DNA from: Dickeya dadantii NCPPB 898
GTDB taxonomy: Bacteria > Pseudomonadota > Gammaproteobacteria > Enterobacterales > Enterobacteriaceae
DNA length: 32,000 bases
Reading direction: 5' to 3'
NCBI RefSeq assembly: GCF_000406145.1
Contig: NZ_CM001976.1
Span: forward strand, 3,967,472-3,999,471
A program made the position numbers and the translations under genes. The notes beneath the pieces were generated by a model that was not told the origin of the DNA, made no database searches, and worked only from the letters and a program-made list of their open reading frames with translations. How positions within the stretch are numbered: the first letter of the stretch is position 1; each line of letters begins with the position of its first letter. Below are positions 6,765 through 19,127 of the stretch, piece after piece.

Positions 6765-7331
6765 ATGTTAAATTTCTGCGTATTCTGTGGTTCCGCTCTT
6801 GGCAATAACACTATTTATCAGCAGGAAACCGAAAAACTTATTCGCTATCTGGTCGAGAAAGAGGCGGGTATTGTTTACGGCGGCGGGAAAGTGGGCCTGA
6901 TGGGGCTGGTGGCGGATACCGCGTTGCAGCATGGCGGTTCCGTCACCGGCGTGATGCCCGTACAGCTGGTGGAAAAAGAGATTGCCCACCCGAAACTGAC
7001 GGAGCTGGTCGTCACCGCGGACATGCATGAACGAAAAGCGAAAATGGCCGAGCTGTCGGATGTCTTCATCGCGCTGCCCGGCGGCGCCGGTACGCTCGAA
7101 GAGATCATCGAACAGTGGACCTGGGCGCAGTTGGGTATTCATCACAAGCCCTGCATTCTGTTCAACGTGAACGGCTACTACGACGAATACATCACCTTCG
7201 TGAACAAGGTAGTCAACGAAGGCTTCATGAAAAAAGAGTACCTCGACATGCTGATCGTGTCGGATAGCCCCGAAACGGTGCTGGACAAGGCATTGTCCTA
7301 CCAGCCGCCCAAAGCCAAGTGGGATAAATAA
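6765..7331 (+). CDS. LOG-family protein (nucleoside 5'-monophosphate phosphoribohydrolase; annotated historically as lysine decarboxylase-like)
   Basis: I place the start at ATG 6765 with AAAGGAA at 6754-6760. The upstream 72 codons of ORF 6549-7331 are AT-rich and non-coding-like. Signature motifs: VYGGGKVGLMG and ALPGGAGTLEEI. Confidence 0.85.
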   Translation: MLNFCVFCGSALGNNTIYQQETEKLIRYLVEKEAGIVYGGGKVGLMGLVADTALQHGGSVTGVMPVQLVEKEIAHPKLTELVVTADMHERKAKMAELSDVFIALPGGAGTLEEIIEQWTWAQLGIHHKPCILFNVNGYYDEYITFVNKVVNEGFMKKEYLDMLIVSDSPETVLDKALSYQPPKAKWDK

Positions 7332-8077: not shown

Positions 8078-8093
8078 GCCGCCGATCAGCGGC
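8078..8093 (-). terminator. Short hairpin overlapping the DeoR-family stop codon (possible weak terminator)
   Basis: GCCGC (8078-8082) / GCGGC (8089-8093) with a 6-nt loop containing the TGA stop. On the minus strand it is followed by TTTCCCTTCACGCTATTTTTT. The stem is only 5 bp. Confidence 0.3.
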
Positions 8094-8856
8094 CTGCACT
8101 CACCAGTTGCAGATTGAACGGCTGCGCCCGCAGTTGACGCTCCACCTCCGGCGGCAAACTGCTGTCGGTGATGATATCGGTCAGTTCAGACAACGGCGAC
8201 ACGCAGAACAGCGAGTAAGCGCCGTATTTGCTGCTGTCTGCCAGCAGCACCCGGCGGCTGGCGTTCATGCCCAGATCCTGCTTGATGCCGGCTTTTTCCT
8301 CGGTGGGCGTAGTAATGCCTTTCTCCAGGCTCCAGGAGTTACAGCTGATGAAGGCGATGTCCGGGTAGACGCTGCGCAGCAGACGACGACCGTGTTCGCC
8401 GATGCAGGACTGGCTGCTGTCGTCGATGCGCCCGCCGATGATCGTCACCTCGATCTGCTTGAACTCGGAGAGAAACAGCGCGATCTGCAAGTCGGCGGTG
8501 ATCACCCGCAGCGGCAGGTGGGTCAGGTTGCGCGCCAGTTCCATCATGGTGGTGCCGGCGTCGAGCACCACCGCGTTGCCGGGCTGCACCAGCGACGCCG
8601 CATACCGCGCAATAGCCTGTTTTTCCGACAGATTACGCTGCAGCTTTTCATTGGTCGTCGGCTGGGAAGGGATAAAGCGGTTGAGCGTCACCCCGCCGTG
8701 ACTACGGCTGATGACGCCCTGCTCGTCCAGTTTGATCAAATCGCGGCGAATCGTCGCCGGGGACGCATCAATGACCGTCACAAGTTCATCCACCGTCACC
8801 AGATTATGGCTTTTCAGATAATCCAGAATCTGATCGAGACGGCTTTGTCCTTTCAC
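8086..8856 (-). CDS. DeoR-family transcriptional regulator
   Basis: N-terminal [52 protein letters not shown]. The C-terminal sugar-phosphate-binding DeoR-C domain includes VVLDAGTT. The track start is TTG 8889. I prefer GTG 8856, which has GGAG 6-7 nt upstream and gives a normal-length N-terminus. Confidence 0.85.
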
Positions 8857-8937
8857 TCGTTCTCCATTTACACGCAACGTATCAGTCAATGTGTGTGCCC
8901 CACGACGTATTCAACGGTTCTATACTCGGCGATTCTA

Positions 8938-9918
8938 TCAGGCCAGTTGCATCGCTAATTTGATAGAGATCGCCATGCTCTCAGACTTCGCTTTACCTGT
9001 CCAGGCGATATCAAACGCGGTGCCGTGGTCCGCGGAGGTGCGGATAAACGGCAGCCCGGCGGTGATATTCACGCCGTCATAAAAGCCCAGCAGCTTGAGC
9101 GGGATGTGCCCCTGATCGTGGTACATCGCCACCACCATGTCGTATTGCCCCTCGTACGCCTGCAGGTAGACGGTATCCGGCGGGCACGGGCCGTAGGCGT
9201 CGATGCCTTTGGCTTTCATCGCCTCGATGGACGGGCCGACGATGGTGATCTCTTCGTCGCCGAACAGGCCGTTCTCGCCCGCGTGCGGGTTCACCCCGGC
9301 CACGGCGATGCGCGGCGCCTGATAACCCACGCGTTTCAGGAAGGTATCCGCCATCGCAATCACGGTTTCCACTCGCTCACGGTTAAGCGTATCCAGGAAC
9401 TTGCGCAGCGCAATATGGGTGGTGACGTGGATCACCTTCAGTTTGTCGGTATACAGCACCATCGCATAGTCGCGGCTGTTGGTCAGCTTCGCCAGCAGTT
9501 CGGTGTGCCCCGGGTAGAGATGTCCGGCGGAGTGCAGCGCTTCCTTATTGAGCGGCGCGGTGGCGATTGCATGTACCTCGCCCGCCATCGCCAGTTCGGT
9601 GGCGCGCTTCACGCAGCGATACGCCAGATCGCCGGCCTGCGCCTGCACTACCCCTTTTTTCAGGCCCTGCGGATCGGCCAGCGGTTCGTCGATCACGTTG
9701 ATAACGCCGGGAGCGAAACGCGCGTCGGCAGGACGCGCAATCTCATTGAGTTCTACCTGCGGTACAACGCCTAACGCCAGAATGCGGCGCAGCGTCTGCA
9801 CGCAGCCCACCACCACCGCCGGCGCGCCGGACAGTTCACCTTCGGCCAACGATTTGATGATGATTTCCGGGCCGATACCCGCCGGGTCGCCCATGGTTAC
9901 CGCAATAATTTTACTCAC
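8938..9918 (-). CDS. pdxA2: PdxA-family NAD-dependent 4-phospho-hydroxyacid dehydrogenase (decarboxylating), PdxA2-type by context
   Basis: [48 protein letters not shown] and [18 protein letters not shown] are collinear with E. coli PdxA as I recall it. GTG start at 9918 with GAGGAG at 9926-9931. It overlaps the kinase stop by 8 nt. Pairing with a DUF1537 kinase is the PdxA2 context. Confidence 0.8.
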
Positions 9919-11197
9919 ACACGCTCTCCTCAATAAAACGCAATACATTCAGCAGGGTAGCTTCATCGCCAAACCCGCCCGCTTTCGTCATCACGGGAAT
10001 ATCGCCTACCAGACTGTCCAGCAGACGTCCCCAGGGTACGCAGGAAGCAATCTGCCCATTGATGCGGAACCCACTGGCCTGCAATGCGGTTGCCGCGGCA
10101 ATGGCGATATCCCCGCCGGATAAATAGAGCCCGCCCGGCCGCTGACGCTGCACAATGTGCCGCGTTAGCTCGCCCAGCCGGCGACTGATCGTGTCTCCCA
10201 GTTGCTGACGACTCATGCCGTAGCGCTGGCACAGACGGTCCACCTCAAATCGCTGGTTATCGTCGTGGCAGGTACGAATCACGCAGTGACGGCCCGCCGC
10301 CAGCGTATCCGCCGCCTGCCGACACGTTTGCGCCAGCGTATCGTCGCCGGTCGCCAGCAGCCCGGCGATATCCAGGTCAATCAGCGTGACGTCCGGACGC
10401 TGGCTGACCGCCTTGATCTGCAATTGAGCGATTTCACTCATCGAACCAATCACCGCCAGCAACGCGCGGCAGTGCGTCGGATACGCCAGATGCTGCGCCA
10501 GCGCCTCGCTCAGCCCGGCGGAACCGACCAGCAACGGTTTTTCCGCCAGTTGAGCCGCCGCCGCAATAATCCGGTCGAGGTCCTGCTGATGTTCAGCGTC
10601 CAGCACCACCAGCCGTATCCCGCTGTGCTGCAACTGTTGCAGCCGCGCCGCCAGATCGCCGTCGCGAACCTCGTTCAGGGACAGCACCGCCTGCGCCAGG
10701 CCGGTCTGTTCCGCCAGCCGCTCGCCGATTGACGCCGAAAGCACCGGCGTTTTCGGGTCGCTGGCGAACTCGGTGTCGGTCAGCAATTTACCGTGCACCC
10801 AGACCTGCCCGTCGCGGGTGATGCGGCCTAACGCCGGCGCCGCGGGCGCTATCAGCGCCAGCGACAAGTCGGCGGCGTTTAGCGCGGCTTCGATTTCCGC
10901 GCCCGGATTGCCGCGCAGCGTAGAGTCCACCTTTTTGACAATCCAGCCGTGCGCGCCGCTCTTGCGCCACATTCCCACCGCCTGCGCGGTACGTTCCGCC
11001 GCCAGCGAGGCCGCGACCGCGCGGCTGTCGGTGTTGACCACCAGCGCGTCGTCCGGCTGCCCGGCACGGATCGCCGCGGCGTCAAACATCACATTCACCC
11101 GCGCACCCTGCAGCGCCAGTCCGACGCCCGCATCGTTGGCACCGGTGAAGTCATCCGCCACCACCAATATCCGGGTAAGTTCACGCCCGTCCGGCAT
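9911..11197 (-). CDS. DUF1537-family four-carbon acid-sugar kinase (threonate / erythronate / 3-oxo-tetronate kinase family)
   Basis: N-terminal hallmark [15 protein letters not shown]. 428 aa, two-domain size typical of the family. GGAGAG RBS 5 nt upstream of ATG 11197. Translationally coupled to the pdxA-family gene. Confidence 0.8.
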
Positions 11198-11208
11198 AGC
11201 CGCTCTCC

Positions 11209-11269
11209 GTCAGTTCGATGTCAGTTCGATTACCTGAAATTGATTATATTGAATCACGTTTGATTATAT
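11209..11269. promoter_or_regulatory. Divergent control region with two sets of direct repeats (candidate DeoR-family operators)
   Basis: Tandem 11-mer gtcagttcgat at 11209-11219 and 11220-11230. 10-mer ttgattatat at 11240-11249 and 11260-11269 (20-bp phasing). Located in the 225-bp AT-rich gap between the divergent kinase (-) and Fe-ADH (+) genes. Confidence 0.45.
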
Positions 11270-11422
11270 GTGAGCAACGTCAAATTATTCAAAACCAATT
11301 TAACCTATAAATTATCCACACAATGCGAGCAAAACGATTTTTTTCTGTCACATAAAAGAAATGTGATTGAAAAAAATCAGACTTATCCAGCTGAAGTCAC
11401 AGCGAAAAGACAAGGTACCAGT

Positions 11423-12559
11423 ATGAATATCAACAGCACCCTCATCAGCGGTTATCAGGCACTCCAGGATTTGGGCTACCTCCTGCGCGGCAGGCAGCAC
11501 GTACTGCTGGTGACGGACAAGAATATCGTGGGGCTGGCCGGGGTACAGGCCCTGATCGCGCAACTGAAAGCGGGCGTACCGCAACTTTCCCTGATTGATA
11601 ATGTGCCGGCCGAACCCAGCCAGCATGATGTGGCGGCCGTACTGCAACAGCTGCCGGCCACGCAGCCGGACCTGGTGGTCGGCGTGGGCGGCGGCAGCGT
11701 GCTGGACGTGGCGAAACTGCTGTCGCTGCTGTGCGCCGGTGAAGAGGGCATCACGCTCGACAGCCTGCTGGAAGGCCGCAAGCCGACGCGCCGCACCACC
11801 TCCCTGTTGATCCCGACCACCGCCGGCACCGGCTCTGAAGCCACGCCGAACGCCATTCTGGCGATCCCGGAGAAAGAAACCAAAGTCGGCATCATCACCC
11901 CGGTGATGCTGCCGGATTACGTGGCGCTGGTGCCGGAACTGACCACCAGCATGCCGGCGCATATCGCCGCGTCGACCGGCATTGATGCGCTGTGCCACCT
12001 GATCGAATGCTTCACCGCCACCATCGCCAACCCGGTAGCCGACAACTACGCGCTGATCGGTATGAAGAAACTGTTCGCCAACATCGAAACCGCGGTGAAC
12101 GAGCCGGACAATCTGGAAGCTCGCCTGAATATGCTGTGGGCCTCCTACTATGGCGGCGCTTCCATCGCGCACTCCGGCACCCATCTGGTGCACGCCATGT
12201 CTTACCCGCTAGGCGGCAAGTACCACATCCCGCACGGGGTGGCGAACGCCATTCTGCTGGCGCCCTGCATGCGCTTCGTTCAGCACGCGGCGGCGGAAAA
12301 ATTCGCACAGGCCTACGACCTGCTGCCGGATGCCGACCTGTCGCTGAGCACCGAACAAAAAGCCCAGGCGCTGGTGGATTACTTCACTGTACTGGTGAAA
12401 CGGCTGAATCTGCCGTCTTCGCTGCAACAACTGGGGATCAGCCCGGACCACCTGCCGTATCTGGTGGAATCCGCACTGCAAGTGCAGCGGCTGATGAAAA
12501 ATGTCCCGACCGCCGTTACGGCGGAAGACGTTCACGCCATTTATTCAACGTTGTTTTAA
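11423..12559 (+). CDS. Iron-containing (group III) alcohol dehydrogenase family oxidoreductase
   Basis: GVGGGSVLDVAK dinucleotide motif and the His-rich metal site HLVHAMSYPLGGKYHIPHGVANA. I place the start at ATG 11423; the track's GTG 11270 extension is AT-rich promoter sequence. Confidence 0.8.
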   Translation: MNINSTLISGYQALQDLGYLLRGRQHVLLVTDKNIVGLAGVQALIAQLKAGVPQLSLIDNVPAEPSQHDVAAVLQQLPATQPDLVVGVGGGSVLDVAKLLSLLCAGEEGITLDSLLEGRKPTRRTTSLLIPTTAGTGSEATPNAILAIPEKETKVGIITPVMLPDYVALVPELTTSMPAHIAASTGIDALCHLIECFTATIANPVADNYALIGMKKLFANIETAVNEPDNLEARLNMLWASYYGGASIAHSGTHLVHAMSYPLGGKYHIPHGVANAILLAPCMRFVQHAAAEKFAQAYDLLPDADLSLSTEQKAQALVDYFTVLVKRLNLPSSLQQLGISPDHLPYLVESALQVQRLMKNVPTAVTAEDVHAIYSTLF

Positions 12560-12627
12560 GCGCCCGTTTTAGTCGCGCATTTTAGCAACGTCGCTCTGGA
12601 TGATGAAAATACCGAGGAACAATAACG

Positions 12628-13512
12628 ATGACTAGACCGATTACGGGCGTACTGACGGCGATCGTCACGCCTTTTGACCATCAGGGGGAATTCAGCCCCG
12701 CCGCCATGCGCCAGCAGGTTCAACGCCAGATGCGCTACGGCAACGGCATTTTCTGTAACGGCACCAACGGCGAGTTCTTTGTACTGCACACCGATGAAAA
12801 GGTGGCCGTCACCGAAACCTGCGTTGATGAAGTCGCCGGCAAGGTGCCGGTAGTGGCGCACATCGGGGAAATCTCCACCCGCGAAACCATCAAGCTCGGC
12901 AAACGCATCGCCGCGCTGGGGGTGGATGCGGTGTCGGTGATCACCCCTTACTTCGTGCCGCTCAAACAAAGCGAACTGATCGCCCACTACCGTGAAGTGG
13001 CGGACGCGCTGCCGGTACCGATATTTCTGTACAACATTCCGGCCCGCACCGGCAACACCCTGCAACCGGAAACGGTGCGGGTGCTGGCGGAGCATCCCAA
13101 CATCATCGGTATCAAGGACAGCGCCGGCAGCTACGAAAGCCTGAGCGGCTTCCTGCAGGCAGTGAAAGATATGCCGAACTGCGACGTGCTCAACGGGCCG
13201 GACTCGCTGATTCATCAGGGCTTTGTCGACGGCTGTTCCGCCTGTATTTCCGGCCTCGCCAACGTGGCGCCGGAAGCCATCAGCCAGATCTGGCACCGCT
13301 TCCACGCTGGCGACATCGAAGGTTCCCGCCAGGCGCAGGAGCAGGTGAGCGAACTGCGTAAGACGCTGTACGCCGTGGCGTTCTCGCCGGCCGTAGTAAA
13401 AAAAGCGCTGACGTTGATGGGGCAGGATGTGGGCGTCAGCCGCTACCCGATTCAGTTCTCACCACAAGACGAAGACACGATTCGCGCCATTATCAAACCG
13501 TTCTCGCACTGA
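12628..13512 (+). CDS. DapA/NanA-family class I (Schiff-base) pyruvate aldolase/lyase
   Basis: GTNGEF (GxxGE motif), LYNIP (active-site Tyr) and IIGIKDSAGS (Schiff-base Lys). 294 aa. Confidence 0.85.
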   Translation: MTRPITGVLTAIVTPFDHQGEFSPAAMRQQVQRQMRYGNGIFCNGTNGEFFVLHTDEKVAVTETCVDEVAGKVPVVAHIGEISTRETIKLGKRIAALGVDAVSVITPYFVPLKQSELIAHYREVADALPVPIFLYNIPARTGNTLQPETVRVLAEHPNIIGIKDSAGSYESLSGFLQAVKDMPNCDVLNGPDSLIHQGFVDGCSACISGLANVAPEAISQIWHRFHAGDIEGSRQAQEQVSELRKTLYAVAFSPAVVKKALTLMGQDVGVSRYPIQFSPQDEDTIRAIIKPFSH

Positions 13513-13549
13513 ATGAGAACTTACCCTTACTCCTACAGGATCGAAAACC

Positions 13550-14971
13550 ATGAACCATTTTGATCTGACAGACACACTTATCATCGTCGGGATAATTGTC
13601 GTCTACATCGCCCTTACATCCTTGCTGACCCTGCGGTTGCGCAGTAACTCCAACTCGGAGTTTATGGAAGGCTCACGCGCGCTGCCGGCGTTTATCGTCG
13701 GCGTGCTGCTGATGACCGAATTTATCGGCGCCAAATCCACGGTCGGTACTTCACAGGCAGCCTTTGAAAGCGGCATCGCCGCTTCCTGGTCGGTGATCGG
13801 CGCCGCCATCGGCTTCCTGCTGTTCGGGATGATTCTGGTGAAAAAGATCTACAACACCGGGAAAATCACTATTTCTGGCGCTATCGCCGAACGTTACGGC
13901 AATACCACCAAGAACATCATCTCCATCATCATGATCTACGCGCTGTTGCTGGTAAACGTGGGTAACTACGTCAGCGGCGCCGCCGCCATCTCCACCGTAC
14001 TGAAAGTGAGCCTGCCGGTCGCGGCGCTGATTACCGCCATCGTCAGTACCTTCTACTTCTACTTCGGCGGCATCAAAGGCGTGGCGTACGTGACGCTGAT
14101 CCACAGCGGCATGAAATACATCGGGGTGATGGTCATTCTGTTCGTGGCGTTGAAAATGACTGGCGGCATCACGCCGATGGTCGAGAAGATGCCGGAATTC
14201 TACTGGACCTGGGACGGCAACATCGGCGCCAGCACCATCGGTGCGTGGCTTATCGGCACCATCGGCTCCATTTTCTGCACCCAGTTCGTGATTCAGGCTA
14301 TCGCTTCCACCAAGGATGAGAAATCCGCTAAACGCGCCACCTGGATTGCGTTCCTGTTCTGTATGCCGATCGCGCTGGCGATTGCGATTATCGGCGTTGC
14401 CGCCAAGTTCGTGCACCCGGAAATCAAAAGCCTGTACGCCCTGCCGATCTTCCTGCAGGACATGAACCCCTGGCTGGCTGGCGTGGTGACCACTTCGCTG
14501 GTAGCGTCCATCTTCATCAGCGTGAGTACCGTTGCGCTGGCGATCGCCTCGCTGATCGTAAAAGATTTCTACGTGCCTTACTGCAAACCGACGCCGGAAA
14601 AAGAGTTCAAGATGACCCGCGTGTTCTCGCTGATCATCGGTTTCCTGCCGCTGGTGTTCGTGCTGCTGGTGCCGGAAGTGCTGAAACTGTCGTTCTTCAC
14701 CCGCGCTATTCGCCTGTCGATTTCCGTGGTGGCGATGGTCGCCTTCTACCTGCCGTTCTTCAGTAGTTCCCGTGGCGTCAACACCGGTCTGATCCTGTCC
14801 TGCGTGGTCACGTCCATCTGGTACATAATGGGTAACCCGTTCGGCATCGACAATATGTACATTGCGCTGTTGACCCCGGCAGTGGTGATGGCTATCGACC
14901 GTCTGATCCCCAACAAGGCGGCCAAGACCAAACAGCAAACCGAACCCTCCGCACCTCATTCTGGAGCATAA
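13550..14971 (+). CDS. Sodium:solute symporter (SSS) family transporter
   Basis: 473 aa, highly hydrophobic with many predicted membrane spans. General SSS-family appearance, similar to sialate/pantothenate/proline-type symporters. Embedded in the catabolic operon. Confidence 0.8.
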   Translation: MNHFDLTDTLIIVGIIVVYIALTSLLTLRLRSNSNSEFMEGSRALPAFIVGVLLMTEFIGAKSTVGTSQAAFESGIAASWSVIGAAIGFLLFGMILVKKIYNTGKITISGAIAERYGNTTKNIISIIMIYALLLVNVGNYVSGAAAISTVLKVSLPVAALITAIVSTFYFYFGGIKGVAYVTLIHSGMKYIGVMVILFVALKMTGGITPMVEKMPEFYWTWDGNIGASTIGAWLIGTIGSIFCTQFVIQAIASTKDEKSAKRATWIAFLFCMPIALAIAIIGVAAKFVHPEIKSLYALPIFLQDMNPWLAGVVTTSLVASIFISVSTVALAIASLIVKDFYVPYCKPTPEKEFKMTRVFSLIIGFLPLVFVLLVPEVLKLSFFTRAIRLSISVVAMVAFYLPFFSSSRGVNTGLILSCVVTSIWYIMGNPFGIDNMYIALLTPAVVMAIDRLIPNKAAKTKQQTEPSAPHSGA

Positions 14972-14977
14972 ATAGTC

Positions 14978-16153
14978 ATGACGACCGAAACCATTACCAT
15001 CGAACGCAGCGGCCTGGTTCACCCGGCAGACAACGACAGTCAGCGCATCGACGCTTACATCCCGTCGGAGCGCCCGCAGAATCACGCCGCCAACCTGCTG
15101 CATCTGCCGAACGGCGATGTGCTGTGCGTCTGGTTCGGCGGCACCCAGGAAGGGGTGTCGGACATATCGATTTATCTGTCGCGGCTGGTGAAAGGGAGCG
15201 GGCAATGGACGCCCGCCGTCAAGCTCTCCGACGACCCGACCCGTTCCGAGCAGAACCCGGTGCTGTTCCTGGCGCCGGACGGCGTGCTGTGGTTGCTGTA
15301 CACCGCGCAGAAATCCGGCAATCAGGACACCGCCATCGTGCGTTACCGTCAGTCGCTGGATCAGGGCTATACCTGGGGCGACATCGGCACGCTGCTGGAG
15401 CAGCCCGGCACCTTCATCCGCCAGCCGATTACCGTGCTGCCCAACGGCGACTGGCTGCTGCCGGTGTTCTACTGCCGCACCCAGCCGGGTGAAAAATGGG
15501 TCGGCAACGACGACATCAGCGCGGTGAAAATCTCCAGCGATCAGGGTAAAACCTGGCGTGAATCGGTGGTGCCGAACAGCACCGGCTGCGTACACATGAA
15601 CATTACGCCGCTCAAAGAAGGTTCTCTGCTGGCGCTGTTCCGCAGCCGCTGGGCCGATTGTATCTACCGCAGTCACTCCACCGACGGCGGCGAAACCTGG
15701 TCCGAACCGGTGCCGACCGTGCTGCCCAACAACAACTCGTCTATTCAGGTGACCACGCTGGACAACGGCCATCTGGCGCTGGTGTTCAACGCCATGAGCG
15801 CCGAAGGGGCCACCGAGCGCCGTCTGTCGCTGTATGACGAAATCGAGGACGAAGAAGAAACCGACGCCAAAATGCCGGAAGTCTCGTCCGGACGCAGCGC
15901 CTTCTGGGGCGCGCCGCGTGCGCCGATGACGCTGGCGATTTCCGAAGACGGCGGGAAAACCTGGCCGTGGCAGCGCAATCTGGAAGTGGGCGACGGTTAC
16001 TGCATGACCAACAACTCGACCGAGAAACTTAACCGCGAGTTTTCCTACCCCAGCATCAAGCAGGGGCCGGACGGCAAGCTGCACATCGCCTTTACCTACT
16101 TCCGGCAGGCCATCAAGTACGTCTGCGTCAGCGAAGAGTGGGTCAAGGGTTAA
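14978..16153 (+). CDS. Sialidase-fold (BNR/Asp-box beta-propeller, GH33-like) protein, apparently cytoplasmic
   Basis: Four Asp-box motifs SxDxGxTW read directly: SLDQGYTW, SSDQGKTW, STDGGETW, SEDGGKTW. The N-terminus MTTETITIERSGLVHPADND has no signal peptide. It starts 6 nt after the transporter stop. Confidence 0.75.
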   Translation: MTTETITIERSGLVHPADNDSQRIDAYIPSERPQNHAANLLHLPNGDVLCVWFGGTQEGVSDISIYLSRLVKGSGQWTPAVKLSDDPTRSEQNPVLFLAPDGVLWLLYTAQKSGNQDTAIVRYRQSLDQGYTWGDIGTLLEQPGTFIRQPITVLPNGDWLLPVFYCRTQPGEKWVGNDDISAVKISSDQGKTWRESVVPNSTGCVHMNITPLKEGSLLALFRSRWADCIYRSHSTDGGETWSEPVPTVLPNNNSSIQVTTLDNGHLALVFNAMSAEGATERRLSLYDEIEDEEETDAKMPEVSSGRSAFWGAPRAPMTLAISEDGGKTWPWQRNLEVGDGYCMTNNSTEKLNREFSYPSIKQGPDGKLHIAFTYFRQAIKYVCVSEEWVKG

Positions 16154-16164
16154 GACCTCGCTCG

Positions 16165-16187
16165 CCCTCCCCCGCTCAGGGGGAGGG
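16165..16187 (+). repeat. Perfect 9-bp GC inverted repeat (stem-loop) within the operon
   Basis: CCCTCCCCC (16165-16173) gctca GGGGGAGGG (16179-16187), 12 nt after the BNR gene stop. A second hairpin GGAGGC-N7-GCCTCC (16256-16274) lies just upstream of the next RBS. No T-run follows either. Confidence 0.7.
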
Positions 16188-16293
16188 ACCACACAAATTC
16201 CCCACTTGCCGACGCACGGCGCCGCCCGGTGGGCTGCCACATCCATTGCCTTCAGGGAGGCTATCGTCGCCTCCTTCAGTTAAGGAGTCATCC

Positions 16294-16767
16294 ATGATCG
16301 CAGGCAATCTGAATTATCTGCCGCTGGCGACGTTACCCGAGCCGCTGTGGCGCATTCTGTCCGGTTTCACGCTCGACCAGTTGAACGCCCTGCCGGAAGG
16401 CAAGTACCAGCCGGACAACGTCGACTGGTTCTACTCCATCGGTACCGTCTCCACCGCCCCGAAAGCCGAACGTCATACCGAATTCCACCGCCGTTTTCTT
16501 GATATTCAGCTGATCCTCGTCGGTGAAGAGATCATCGGTTACGACCTGAATGACGCTGGCGATCGCCCTGCTACCGAGCGCAAACCGGACCTGTTCATTC
16601 TGGAACAACCGCAGGTGCCGCACGCCATCCGGCTGGCCGCCGGGGATTTCGTCACCTTCTATCCGGGCGAGCCGCATCAGGCGCTGTGCGCGATCAACGA
16701 CCAGCCGGCCCCGGTGAAAAAAGCGGTGTTCAAAGTGCCGGTCGAACTACTGAACGCACAGAGGTAA
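16294..16767 (+). CDS. YhcH/YjgK/YiaL-family (DUF386) protein, sugar-acid anomerase/isomerase-like
   Basis: ATG 16294 with AAGGAG at 16282-16287. HRRFLDIQLILVGEE, FYPGEPHQALC and KKAVFKV are collinear with E. coli YhcH (nan operon) as I recall it. The track's upstream extension from 16138 is Pro/Gly-rich junk across the hairpins. Confidence 0.75.
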   Translation: MIAGNLNYLPLATLPEPLWRILSGFTLDQLNALPEGKYQPDNVDWFYSIGTVSTAPKAERHTEFHRRFLDIQLILVGEEIIGYDLNDAGDRPATERKPDLFILEQPQVPHAIRLAAGDFVTFYPGEPHQALCAINDQPAPVKKAVFKVPVELLNAQR

Positions 16768-16773
16768 CGCCGA

Positions 16774-17457
16774 ATGTCAGGACAAAAACAGGTGGTAATC
16801 ACCGGCAGCAGCTCCGGCATCGGCGCCGCCATTACCGCCACCCTGCTGGCGGCGGGCTGGAAGGTTATCGGGCTATCGCGTCAGCCGGGCGCGCACCAGC
16901 ACCCGAATTTCACGCATCACCCGCTGGACATCACCGATACGCCGGCGCTTATCGCGCTGCTGGACAGCCTGCCCGCCGTCGATGCGGTGATTCACGCCGC
17001 CGGGGTGATGAAAGCCGCAACGCTGGGTTCGCTGTCGTACGCCGACAGCGAACAGCTGTGGAAACTGCATATTCAGGTGGCCGAAGTGCTGGCCGACCGA
17101 CTGGTGGACAAACTGCCGCAGGGCGGCCGCATCGTGCTGCTGGGCAGCCGGACCTCCAGCGGCGCCGCCGGACGTAGCCAGTACGTCGCCACCAAGTCGG
17201 CGATGATTGGCATGGTGAGAAGCTGGGCGGCGGAGCTGGCGCCACGCGGCATCACCGTCAATATCGTCGCGCCGGGCGCCACCGAAACGCCGATGCTGAA
17301 TCAGCCGGGACGGCAAAGCTCGCCGCCGAAACTGCCGCCGATCGGCCGGTTTATCCAGCCGCAGGAGGTGGCGGATCTGGTGGCGTATCTGCTGTCGCCC
17401 TCAGCGGCGGCCATCACCGGGCAACAACTGGTGATCTGCGGCGGCGCCTCGTTATAA
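16774..17457 (+). CDS. Classical short-chain dehydrogenase/reductase (SDR)
   Basis: TGSSSGIG cofactor motif, YVATKSA (YxxxK) catalytic motif, and NIVAPG. 227 aa. Starts 6 nt after the upstream stop. Confidence 0.85.
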   Translation: MSGQKQVVITGSSSGIGAAITATLLAAGWKVIGLSRQPGAHQHPNFTHHPLDITDTPALIALLDSLPAVDAVIHAAGVMKAATLGSLSYADSEQLWKLHIQVAEVLADRLVDKLPQGGRIVLLGSRTSSGAAGRSQYVATKSAMIGMVRSWAAELAPRGITVNIVAPGATETPMLNQPGRQSSPPKLPPIGRFIQPQEVADLVAYLLSPSAAAITGQQLVICGGASL

Positions 17458-17483: not shown

Positions 17484-19127
17484 TCAACGGCTGGCGACAC
17501 TCAACGCCAGCCGCGGCGCTTGATTGGTCAACATTGTATTGGTCACCATTGAGTCGGCAGCCATCGAATCAGCAATAGTAAACCGACTGACGGATTGTTT
17601 CAGTTCCAGCGAGTGGGTTTCCAGATAGGTCGTATCCGTCGCGGTTTGTTCTACCATCGCGGCATTCTGTTGAGTTGTACGCTCCATGTCAGCAAGCGAC
17701 CGGGCAATCTCCTGCGTGGCGACGGACTGCTCCGCCGACGTATCCGCGATCTTCCTGATAAACTCGCTGGACAGATCGACTACCTGATTGATTTTCTGCA
17801 TCACTTCGGATGCCTGGCTGATTTCATTGTATCCTTCGCCAATTTTCTCTGATGACGCATCGATTAAGTTTTTTATCTGATGCGCTGACGCGGTAGTTTT
17901 CTGCGACAGGGTACGGATTTCAGCAGCGACAACCGAGAACCCACGCCCCACTTCCCCCGCTCGCGCCGCCTCAACAGCCGCGTTAATCGCCAGAATGTTG
18001 GTCTGGAAGGCGATATCCTCAATAACTTTAGTGATCGACGAAATACTGTCTGAATGCTGTTTGATGTTTTCCATCGTATTCACGATTTTGCTCACCAGTT
18101 GGTAACCCTGATGCGTTTCACTCGCTGCATTTTCCGATAACTGGCTCGCCTGCCTGGCGTTGGCGGCGTTATCTTTCACCGATTCCGACACCTGCCCCAT
18201 CGCCGCCGCAGTTTGCTGCAACGCAGAGACCTGCATATCGGTGCGATGCGACAGCGCCACACTGCTTTTACTGATATTCTCGCTGGCGACCGTCACACCA
18301 TCAGCATGCTTCAACACATTAGCGACAATCGCTATTAATGACTGGCGCATGGTTTCAATGGCTGCCATTACACTGTGTTGCTGCTTATCATTAATGACAG
18401 TTTTCTCCGCCAAATTACCGGATGCTATCGCACGGGTCATGGTCAATAATACCGTTGGCTCCGCTCCCAATGCCTGAAAAATTCGGCGACGAGTCGTAAA
18501 CATCGCCAGCGCACCCAGTAATATAGCGACGATTAAAACAATCGGCATAACCACGGTAAAATACCTCGCCGTTTCTCTTGCCGTGTGCGTCAACTGATTA
18601 TTCTGCGCGGCTTCATAATTAATAAATGCATTCACATCCGCCAGCCATTGTACAAATGCACCACGACCTTCACTCAACAATATATTACGGGATGCCTCAG
18701 TCTTTCCTTCATTTTGCAAAGCAATCAACCGGGAAATAATTGCGCTGGTTTTATTATTCGAGCGCTGTATGTTTTGATATAATTCCTTTTCCTGATCAGA
18801 TGTCTTGAATTGGCGCAACATCGTATCAAGCCGGGCATCCGATTGCTGATAAACCATCGCCAATTCATTGATATTATTTATTATTGCAGACAACTCCTGT
18901 TTATCGGCAATCAATAAATCTCGTACCGCAATTGACCGATCATGAACGCTACCCCGTAAATTCACCGCATAAAATTGCTTAACACTATTTTCATCATTAA
19001 CTTCGGTTAATATATTACTGATATAGCGAATTGTTATCAGACCTAAAACACCTAATAAAACACTTACTAATATAGGAATAATAAAACCGACTACAATTTG
19101 TCTTTTTACTGTCATTGTATTGTTCAT
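17484..19127 (-). CDS. Methyl-accepting chemotaxis protein (periplasmic helical-bundle sensor, HAMP, MA domain)
   Basis: N-terminal TM helix, a roughly 170-aa periplasmic region and a second TM helix. Highly conserved signalling hairpin: AFQTNILAINAAVEAARAGEVGRGFSVVAAEIRTLSQKT. GGGGGA RBS upstream of ATG 19127. Confidence 0.9.
   Translation of the reverse strand: MNNTMTVKRQIVVGFIIPILVSVLLGVLGLITIRYISNILTEVNDENSVKQFYAVNLRGSVHDRSIAVRDLLIADKQELSAIINNINELAMVYQQSDARLDTMLRQFKTSDQEKELYQNIQRSNNKTSAIISRLIALQNEGKTEASRNILLSEGRGAFVQWLADVNAFINYEAAQNNQLTHTARETARYFTVVMPIVLIVAILLGALAMFTTRRRIFQALGAEPTVLLTMTRAIASGNLAEKTVINDKQQHSVMAAIETMRQSLIAIVANVLKHADGVTVASENISKSSVALSHRTDMQVSALQQTAAAMGQVSESVKDNAANARQASQLSENAASETHQGYQLVSKIVNTMENIKQHSDSISSITKVIEDIAFQTNILAINAAVEAARAGEVGRGFSVVAAEIRTLSQKTTASAHQIKNLIDASSEKIGEGYNEISQASEVMQKINQVVDLSSEFIRKIADTSAEQSVATQEIARSLADMERTTQQNAAMVEQTATDTTYLETHSLELKQSVSRFTIADSMAADSMVTNTMLTNQAPRLALSVASR

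Follow-up and report, generated by a model that had tools for sequence, protein, structure and literature searches.

A divergent gene island of Dickeya dadantii predicted to pass a seven-carbon sugar diacid into D-threonate catabolism

We analysed a window of 32,000 nucleotides from Dickeya dadantii NCPPB 898 (contig NZ_CM001976.1, positions 3,967,472 to 3,999,471) and, within it, a divergent island of nine genes at positions 8086-17457. We propose that this island takes up and degrades a seven-carbon sugar diacid belonging to the family of 3-deoxy-D-lyxo-hept-2-ulosaric acid (Dha) by way of D-threonate, a reading to which we give an even chance. Its core, in which a 3-deoxy-heptulosaric acid would be split into pyruvate and a four-carbon acid that is then handled by the enzymes DtnK and PdxA2, is well supported in silico. 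The initial annotation of this DNA had read the island as a pathway for a Dha glycoside from the pectic polysaccharide rhamnogalacturonan II (RG-II); its gene calls, the unity of the two arms and the chemistry leading to D-threonate stood up to our analysis, while entry as an RG-II glycoside and the claim that the pathway accounts for every gene did not.

Gene content, linkage and control of the two arms

Family assignments, gene linkage, a gene fusion, an operator and an aldolase signature were computed for the island, whose features are listed below by coordinates and strand.

8086-8889, minus strand: DeoR-family repressor (Pfam HTH_DeoR and DeoRC); the likely true start is a GTG at about 8856
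8938-9948, minus strand: predicted PdxA2, a decarboxylating 4-phospho-D-threonate dehydrogenase with dihydroxyacetone phosphate (DHAP) and CO2 as products (NF002891)
9911-11197, minus strand: predicted DtnK, a DUF1537 D-threonate 4-kinase (NF047819; Pfam SBD_N and NBD_C)
11198-11423, no strand: divergent control region of 226 bp with palindromic operators and promoter-like sites
11424-12559, plus strand: Fe-dependent alcohol dehydrogenase (Fe-ADH; Pfam Fe-ADH); the open reading frame runs from 11270, with the true start at ATG 11424
12628-13512, plus strand: class I pyruvate aldolase of the dihydrodipicolinate synthase (DHDPS) family, the proposed Dha aldolase (Pfam DHDPS)
13550-14971, plus strand: sodium:solute symporter (SSS) family transporter, the proposed substrate importer (Pfam SSF)
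14978-16153, plus strand: BNR_2 six-bladed sialidase-fold protein, here the BNR protein (Pfam BNR_2, 225 bits)
16165-16187, no strand: GC-rich perfect 9-bp hairpin, CCCTCCCCC / GGGGGAGGG, inside the gap between the BNR gene and yhcH
16294-16767, plus strand: YhcH/DUF386-family protein (Pfam DUF386; TIGR00022 above cutoff), with an ATG start and an AAGGAG ribosome-binding site
16774-17457, plus strand: classical short-chain dehydrogenase/reductase (SDR) oxidoreductase (Pfam adh_short)

The list of open reading frames together with Pfam and NCBIfam scans placed all nine genes where the initial annotation had put them, and its gene calls were correct throughout. It had also guessed a plant-associated enterobacterium as host, which agrees with the best match of the BNR protein, 99% identical and from Dickeya dadantii. 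Its statement that the island does not serve catabolism of N-acetylneuraminic acid (Neu5Ac) is in line with the gene content, since neither nanK, nanE nor nagA was found within 8086-17457 by open reading frames, Pfam or NCBIfam, and these sources gave no ROK kinase, epimerase or deacetylase there.

Judged by its model scores, the minus arm appears to be a member of the known D-threonate pathway, the catabolic route through DtnK and PdxA2 that Zhang et al. reportedly described in PNAS in 2016. The PdxA2 protein scored 684.2 bits against NF002891 ('D-threonate 4-phosphate dehydrogenase', cutoff 583) and the kinase 611.7 bits against NF047819 ('D-threonate kinase', cutoff 450), so that both passed equivalog models. 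Escherichia coli LH50-c carries a stand-alone minimal operon in the order permease-dtnK-pdxA2-deoR, with a KdgT-like permease, and its products share 80% (PdxA2), 71% (DeoR) and 43% (DtnK) identity with those of the island. The two equivalog scores and the close match of PdxA2 to the stand-alone operon sustain the earlier view of this pair as a D-threonate route. A megablast search with the island against 5,426 E. coli genomes returned partial matches only (pdxA2 and deoR), in 3 genomes. Unlike the operon of LH50-c, the Dickeya minus arm has no D-threonate permease among its open reading frames and Pfam matches, which suggests that D-threonate is produced intracellularly here.

Linkage between the two arms was assessed by scanning a genome collection with an alignment of the BNR protein, which confirmed at least 578 encoded relatives; 80 loci were listed, are the basis of all counts out of 80 given here, and had their content determined by tblastn with nine window proteins. 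Genes for the DapA-like aldolase, Fe-ADH, the DUF1537 kinase and PdxA were all located within 9 kb of the BNR gene in 59/80 loci, and three of the four in 4 more; a YhcH gene is present in 41/80. The listed loci came from Enterobacterales, Gilliamella, Tolumonas, Burkholderia, Paraburkholderia, Ralstonia, Propionivibrio, Methylobacterium, Azospirillum, Acetobacteraceae, the Bacillus pumilus group, Paenibacillus, Priestia and Veillonellaceae, and the 59 with the full module include Enterobacterales, Burkholderiales, Alphaproteobacteria and Firmicutes. The Fe-ADH and DapA-like genes are neighbours in most loci with the module, and Burkholderiales, Paenibacillus and Priestia have all the genes on one strand, as an operon ordered DapA-FeADH-kinase-PdxA-transporter-BNR. 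A search of plasmids gave 324 records, and among annotated examples all six core functions were present on Rhizobium leguminosarum pR132504, Sinorhizobium meliloti pSymB, an At plasmid of Agrobacterium fabrum and the megaplasmid of Ralstonia solanacearum. In Ralstonia, moreover, the kinase and PdxA are fused in a single protein of 766 aa, with DUF1537 at residues 10-410 and PdxA at 433-754.

Fusions of this kind, about 766-830 aa long, occur in Burkholderiales at L090 4106-6406 (Ralstonia solanacearum megaplasmid, where the protein is annotated merely as 'hypothetical protein') and at L073 5881-8379 (Paraburkholderia). In Pantoea stewartii DC283 the island is on the large plasmid pDSJ10 (L091 3958-5448) beside insertion sequence elements; dtnK is unlisted between pdxA2 and the Fe-ADH gene, where a gap of about 500 bp is too short for one, and the gene may have been lost or decayed in this strain.

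The control region contains the palindrome TGATT-N6-AATCA in two exact copies, at 11241-11256 and 11364-11379, together with a half-site at 11261-11276; for the window as a whole, 0.74 occurrences would be expected with one mismatch allowed. The motif around this operator is kept in about 40/41 enterobacterial versions of the divergent intergenic region, and TGATT-N6-AATCA is also found three times upstream of the stand-alone dtn operon of E. coli LH50-c. Because the operator is common to both arms and to the LH50-c operon, the plus arm is very probably under the regulator of the D-threonate pathway. The region further holds a conserved TATAAAT at 11306-11312 and, by promoter scan, a minus-strand promoter-like site at 11292-11263. 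No KdgR-like box was found in 11198-11423 at up to two mismatches to TGAAAY-N3-RTTTCA in a crude scan, and matches to the KdgR core elsewhere in the window stayed at chance level in the same scan.

These results provide three independent grounds, namely linkage in 59/80 loci, the Ralstonia gene fusion and an operator on both sides of the control region, on which the two arms, read as a single pathway from the outset, appear to be one functional unit. That the whole island forms one regulon of the DeoR-family repressor is part of our best explanation, which taken jointly we regard as evenly poised. Regulators differ among hosts: in Firmicutes clusters a PrpR_N/sigma-54-type activator replaces DeoR (L045 11309-13105, Bacillus safensis; L055 2063-3811, Paenibacillus peoriae), and the clusters of rhizobia and Agrobacterium carry a GntR/FadR regulator, such that the regulator is exchanged and the enzymes are constant.

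Aldol cleavage, reduction and the sialidase-fold protein

The aldolase scored 192.9 bits against the dapA model TIGR00674 (cutoff 206.15) and 132.7 and 167 bits against the nanA models (cutoffs 382 and 281, respectively), which places it nearer to true DapA than to NanA in NCBIfam. It falls outside DapA proper, with a score below the cutoff and the triad Tyr133-Thr44-Tyr107 broken by replacement of Tyr107 with Phe. We aligned 25 island aldolase orthologues with DapA, NanA and YagE of E. coli (NC_000913) and found the signature T44-N45, F107, Y133, R/K138 and K161 in nearly all orthologues examined. K161, Y133 and R/K138 occurred together in 24/25 sequences, drawn from Enterobacterales, Burkholderiales, Alphaproteobacteria and Firmicutes, with the aldolase of Rhizobium leguminosarum, a different DapA subtype, as the sole exception.

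Position 138 of DHDPS is where the island aldolases are basic and where NanA (as Leu142) and YagE have Leu. Arg138 of DHDPS holds aspartate semialdehyde, a 4-oxobutanoate, by its carboxylate, and the aldehydes released by NanA and YagE are free of a carboxylate. A basic residue at this position is consistent with predicted cleavage of a heptulosaric acid to pyruvate and a four-carbon aldehydo-acid, and the proposed product, 2,3-dihydroxy-4-oxobutanoate, would have the same skeleton as aspartate semialdehyde. A hint about the following step comes from Fe-ADH, whose best NCBIfam match in Dickeya and Brenneria was 4-hydroxybutyrate dehydrogenase (219 bits for the Dickeya protein, far below the cutoff); 4-hydroxybutyrate shares its carbon skeleton with the C4 aldehyde that Fe-ADH may reduce. 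Matches in PDB and NCBIfam allowed no specificity to be assigned to Fe-ADH or to the SDR. The stereochemistry was re-derived with Fischer projections, in which Dha has C4 left, C5 left, C6 right and a carboxyl at C7. Retro-aldol cleavage between C3 and C4 followed by reduction of the aldehyde gave, in our own derivation, D-threonate, the tetronate that has C2 left and C3 right, so that the route from Dha to pyruvate and D-threonate first worked out by hand proved correct.

The BNR protein is predicted to be a six-bladed beta-propeller, with four S-x-D-x-G-x-x-W boxes at residues 126, 186, 234 and 322, and its AlphaFold model (pLDDT 84.5) matched the Micromonospora sialidase 1EUS in Foldseek with a TM-score of 0.70 (E 3e-17). 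Across the 80 loci, from about four phyla, the protein is 65-86% identical, and 107 positions have two or fewer exceptions in 86 sequences; ten of these positions are arginine, and Tyr357 and Asp62, candidates for the catalytic nucleophile and acid/base, are also among them. It has no hydrophobic N-terminus and is therefore probably cytoplasmic. The protein matches no NCBIfam model, 'exo-alpha-sialidase' being a generic PGAP name, and searches of PDB sequences with its profile gave matches at the level of Asp boxes only. Its active site was mapped by Asp-box anchoring on human NEU2, using a NEU2 sequence whose numbering was self-consistent. On this basis we take Arg222 to correspond to NEU2 Arg237, Arg314 to Arg304 and Tyr357 to Tyr334. 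At the level of motifs, the first arginine, of the RIP motif in NEU2, would presumably be replaced by the conserved His36, and the Glu that partners the nucleophilic Tyr by approximately His206.

Every substrate in the pathway that follows is one we infer, as are the roles of the BNR protein, YhcH and Fe-ADH. The SSS transporter would import a monomeric dicarboxylate, most likely daucic acid, and the cytoplasmic sialidase-fold enzyme would hydrate the C2=C3 bond of daucate to give Dha, as sialidases of family GH33 do with Neu5Ac2en, the 2,3-unsaturated form of Neu5Ac. YhcH may accelerate anomerisation or ring opening of the ulosaric acid, which the DapA-like class I aldolase would then cleave to pyruvate and D-threuronate (2,3-dihydroxy-4-oxobutanoate). 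Reduction of D-threuronate by Fe-ADH would yield D-threonate, to be phosphorylated at O-4 by DtnK, and PdxA2 would convert 4-phospho-D-threonate to DHAP and CO2 by oxidative decarboxylation, for a predicted net yield of pyruvate, DHAP and CO2.

Candidate substrates and competing explanations

The SSS transporter matched no solved sialic acid transporter and had no informative solved relative. Other hosts carry substitutes for it, which are of the DASS/CitMHS type in Klebsiella grimontii, TAXI-TRAP and TTT systems in Testudinibacter, acid-sugar transporters of the ACS group of the major facilitator superfamily (MFS) in Brenneria and Pantoea deserta, Nramp-like in Priestia, and Dpp-type ABC systems in rhizobia and Veillonellaceae. 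The substituted families are mostly typical carriers of small organic anions, often dicarboxylates. For S. meliloti, the binding protein apparently encoded beside the sialidase gene, which is inferred to be SMb20144, is listed under 'other organic acids/alcohols' (PMC2848018, citing Mauchline 2006).

A monomeric precursor, either daucic acid or free Dha, fits better than an RG-II glycoside. We take daucic acid to be 2,6-anhydro-3-deoxy-D-lyxo-hept-2-enaric acid, the 2,3-ene of Dha, which would presumably stand in the same relation to Dha as Neu5Ac2en does to Neu5Ac. Daucic acid (C7H8O7, m/z 203.02, hydroxyls at 4' and 5') is reported, as the free acid or in esters, from plants that include carrot, sweet potato, banana, Centella, maize and cocoa (PMC7589261, PMC3499688). 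Hydration of Neu5Ac2en to Neu5Ac is carried out by the GH33 sialidases NanC and NanI (PMC4646021), and in E. coli dehydrated sialic acids are taken up and undergo cytoplasmic conversion ahead of aldol cleavage (PMC7315737). In the searchable literature there was no paper joining sialidase, PdxA, DapA and a four-carbon acid sugar kinase and nothing on catabolic genes for Dha, daucate or chelidonate; the rhizoSMASH paper mentions threonate clusters in general terms only. Three further compounds were tried as substrates and set aside: chelidonic acid, whose ring-opened form is without the vicinal diol needed for threonate; meconic acid, which occurs in few plants; and 3-deoxy-D-manno-oct-2-ulosonic acid (Kdo), whose aldol product D-arabinose has no connection to a C4 acid.

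Several observations weigh against the Dha reading. An SDR, either the orthologue or another SDR (Firmicutes carry a different one), is encoded near the BNR gene in 64/80 loci, and yet it appears to be without a step, as the model needs one reductase only. We can speculate that the SDR has a transient NAD-dependent 4-keto role, like YjhC, or acts on a related compound. In 13/80 loci the transporter, BNR and SDR genes are the only ones of the set nearby. This SSS-BNR-SDR trio stands on its own in Bacillus swezeyi, Acetobacteraceae and several Pantoea, sometimes with a gene for a tartrate dehydrogenase or a dehydratase of the enolase superfamily beside it; the lower module of Pantoea deserta is elsewhere in the genome than the trio. 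A variant without the BNR gene, at the same site beside yacL-acnB, has the Fe-ADH and DapA genes and after them, where SSS-BNR-YhcH-SDR would stand, genes for a D-2-hydroxyacid dehydrogenase and an MFS transporter of the ACS type (Brenneria L084 7825-12289; Pantoea deserta L082 and L083 7842-12263). This implies that two or more cassettes feed the lower pathway and that one or more entry compounds exist besides the one proposed here. With no step for the SDR and the 2-hydroxyacid dehydrogenase of this variant unexplained, the original statement that the pathway accounts for every gene was too strong. In the BNR protein, going by motifs, no more than two of the three sialidase arginines plus the Tyr seem to be retained, and its chemistry may differ. 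For kinases outside Enterobacterales, the DtnK model was still the top-scoring one, yet scores were below its cutoff, and PdxA proteins were likewise below theirs, so that the C4 acid in those hosts could be D-erythronate or another compound. Finally, the searchable literature bears out only the formula and hydroxyls of daucic acid, its exact structure and D-lyxo configuration being assumed.

In Pantoea deserta, a GH28 polygalacturonase gene is located just upstream of the variant island. In Pantoea rwandensis (L008 6262-8329), a tartrate dehydrogenase gene (TIGR02089 score 572, cutoff 470) and a LysR regulator gene stand beside SSS-BNR-SDR without the lower pathway; the tartrate dehydrogenase neighbour may be there by chance or through a link to tartrate semialdehyde chemistry.

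Entry as a glycoside would mean that a Dha ketoside of RG-II side chain D, such as Dha-(2->3)-galacturonic acid, is imported whole and cleaved by the BNR protein acting as a cytoplasmic exo-Dha-ketosidase, with the lower pathway unchanged. We consider this unlikely, and RG-II glycoside entry is the weakest part of the earlier interpretation. The BNR protein does have the GH33 glycosidase fold and keeps a candidate nucleophile, Tyr357, as well as two arginines, and a sialidase-like Dha-hydrolase is known from the RG-II degradome of Bacteroides thetaiotaomicron (BT1020, GH143; PMC6811678). BT1020 showed no detectable sequence similarity to the BNR protein and was absent among the top 50 fold matches. 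Side chain D is readily released (preprint 10.64898/2026.03.13.711244), but Dha is then the reducing end of the released arabinofuranosyl-Dha, which leaves a ketosidase nothing to cleave, and complete RG-II degradomes are reported almost exclusively from Bacteroidota (same preprint). The GH28 gene next to the variant island also counts in favour of this reading. Hosts point both ways, since several, among them Dickeya, Pectobacterium, Paenibacillus, Gilliamella and the Klebsiella oxytoca group, are pectinolytic, whereas many island hosts, including Methylobacterium, Azospirillum, rhizobia and the Bacillus pumilus group, are to our knowledge not RG-II degraders. No partner glycosidase or aglycone-handling gene is conserved in the cluster, and DASS, TAXI-TRAP, TTT and MFS-ACS systems are not known as typical oligosaccharide carriers. 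With small-anion transporters swapped in, a BNR protein that is probably cytoplasmic and no KdgR-like box found in the Dickeya control region, an RG-II glycoside as substrate is unsupported.

A different plant organic acid might instead be turned into D-threonate or a related C4 acid without passing through Dha, a possibility that we also rate as low. The BNR protein could then be a lactonase, cyclase or etherase, for example, and the SDR or 2-hydroxyacid dehydrogenase could make the 2-oxo acid used by the aldolase. This would give a function to the two dehydrogenases that the Dha model leaves unexplained, and it is in keeping with the trio found alone or beside a dehydratase or tartrate dehydrogenase and with a BNR active site that seems to depart from the canonical sialidase set. 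On the other hand, we found no second known natural compound that gives pyruvate and a D-threo C4 carboxy-aldehyde, and the aldolase signature, YhcH and the sialidase fold indicate a 2-ulosonic or 2-ulosaric acid.

The transporter, NanA-family lyase, YhcH and sialidase-fold protein of the plus arm also recall nan clusters, and a Kdo aldolase activity has reportedly been described in Enterobacter without identification of its gene. It is nevertheless highly improbable that the plus arm is a nan-like system for a mono-carboxylic ulosonic acid (Kdo, ketodeoxynononic acid or sialic acid) and that the D-threonate genes are separate in purpose. Beyond the missing nanK, nanE and nagA, the island has no genes for handling arabinose or mannose, and its aldolase is basic where NanA has Leu142. 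Kinase and PdxA genes accompany those for the aldolase and Fe-ADH in both Proteobacteria and Firmicutes and are fused in Ralstonia, the SSS transporter is without a solved sialic acid transporter as relative, and the hosts are plant-associated. Two unrelated neighbouring operons, or vitamin B6 salvage by DUF1537 and PdxA2 (4-hydroxy-L-threonine to pyridoxal phosphate, PLP) beside a sugar-acid operon, are hardly credible even though stand-alone dtn operons exist and DUF1537 plus PdxA2 can reportedly feed PLP synthesis (Thiaville 2016, cited in PMC10971088). Against them stand the linkage and common operons of the genes in Proteobacteria and Firmicutes, one operator on both sides of the control region, a minus arm without a permease, and the position of the kinase and PdxA genes in Burkholderiales and Firmicutes, where those for the aldolase and ADH lie on one side of them and those for the transporter and BNR protein on the other.

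Genomic surroundings, significance and relation to known systems

The island is flanked by a glyoxalase-fold gene, a low-GC chemoreceptor gene, acnB and, farther out, lpdA; these genes are unrelated to it, and its boundaries therefore stand as first drawn. The chemoreceptor gene (17484-19127, minus strand) encodes a methyl-accepting chemotaxis protein with a 4HB_MCP sensor, is convergent with the end of the island, and has a GC content of about 45-48% compared with about 60% in the island. On the other side, 2456-7331 (plus strand) is a one-strand run of genes for an M24/creatinase-like peptidase, a PLP-dependent enzyme of the PALP type, proteins resembling dihydroorotate dehydrogenase and phosphoribosyltransferase, and a member of the LOG/'lysine decarboxylase' family, with an HpaB-like monooxygenase gene upstream at 558-2102. 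This gene mix is unusual in a plant pathogen, LOG proteins being cytokinin releasers. Inside the island, the spacer between the BNR gene and yhcH (16154-16293) is GC-rich and 140 bp long, and the same two genes are 5 bp apart in Pantoea stewartii; the hairpin at 16165-16187 could be a REP-like (repetitive extragenic palindromic) or intra-operon RNA-stability element. An open reading frame of 831 aa that runs antisense across the SSS and BNR genes (13751-16246, minus strand) is almost certainly an artefact of high GC and not a gene.

The proposal of import and breakdown of a Dha-family acid covers three points left unanswered in the searchable literature: the consumption of Dha and daucate, the natural role of DtnK and PdxA2, and the function of this BNR_2 subfamily. 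If it is true, the island supplies the missing natural source of D-threonate for DtnK and PdxA2, and the cytoplasmic 'exo-alpha-sialidase' is a new type of enzyme, a hydratase of ulosaric glycals (2-enes) on a sialidase fold; in the records examined this conserved protein carries a generic name only, and its plant-associated hosts have no evident need of a sialidase. The module is found in soft-rot Pectobacteriaceae, Ralstonia, Agrobacterium, rhizobia, Pantoea, Burkholderia, Azospirillum, Methylobacterium, Bacillus and Paenibacillus, in part on symbiosis or virulence replicons (pSymB, the At plasmid, the Ralstonia megaplasmid and large Pantoea plasmids). Such a location may matter for colonisation of plants and for cross-feeding on acids from cell walls or vacuoles, and a horizontally spread, plasmid-borne module could, if the pathway is as proposed, be a general determinant of plant fitness. 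The full claim, that this is the first catabolic pathway for the family of Dha and daucic acid, that the BNR protein is a new ulosaric 2-ene hydratase, and that the island is a natural source of D-threonate and a horizontally spread trait, is one that we put forward tentatively and with more doubt than confidence.

Compared with the known DtnK/PdxA2 pathway, the minus arm has both equivalogs, a DeoR-type regulator and an operator motif like that of the LH50-c operon, and differs in having no permease and in being joined to an aldolase, reductase, transporter and sialidase-fold module. The aldolase shares with DapA the fold, the Schiff-base Lys161, Tyr133 and the basic residue 138. The reaction proposed for it is the reverse aldol of pyruvate with an acid of the 4-oxobutanoate type, and the pyranose form of Dha would be the oxygen analogue of the DapA product; the island enzyme differs from DapA in the change of Thr45 to Asn and of Tyr107 to Phe, and in its catabolic genomic context.

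In the pathway for glucarate and galactarate, the aldolase GarL is followed by the tartronate semialdehyde reductase GarR and the glycerate kinase GarK. The island would resemble it in the conversion of a 2-keto-3-deoxy-aldarate to pyruvate and a carboxy-aldehyde, then reduction and then phosphorylation, with a C7 substrate proposed where that of glucarate and galactarate is C6. The enzymes also differ, the island having a DapA-like class I aldolase, Fe-ADH and a DUF1537 kinase in place of a class II HpcH aldolase, a beta-hydroxyacid dehydrogenase and a glycerate kinase, with the extra decarboxylation by PdxA2 and without a dehydratase.

With GH33 exo-alpha-sialidases the BNR protein shares its fold and the Asp-box repeats. 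With BT1020 it would have in common a sialidase-like beta-propeller, a catalytic centre built on Tyr and a reaction at C2 of Dha (PMC6811678), although BT1020 is five-bladed, bimodular and acts on polysaccharide, while the island protein is predicted to be six-bladed, single-domain and cytoplasmic.

The nan systems and E. coli YjhBC offer a parallel in overall logic, with import of a (dehydrated) ulosonic acid, its conversion in the cytoplasm, a YhcH-family helper and a class I pyruvate lyase (PMC7315737, PMC4646021). In the island, by comparison, the substrate is proposed to be a C7 dicarboxylic ulosaric acid, and the converting enzyme has a sialidase fold and is not an oxidoreductase of the Gfo/Idh/MocA type. 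NanK, NanE and NagA have no counterparts, the lyase is below the nanA cutoffs and more DHDPS-like than NanA, and its aldehyde product would be an acid that is routed through D-threonate. As far as its genes indicate, then, the plus arm would work in the manner of nan/YjhBC and of the glucarate pathways, yet it falls outside both, and we rate the island as a type of ulosonic-acid catabolism that appears to be joined to the D-threonate route.

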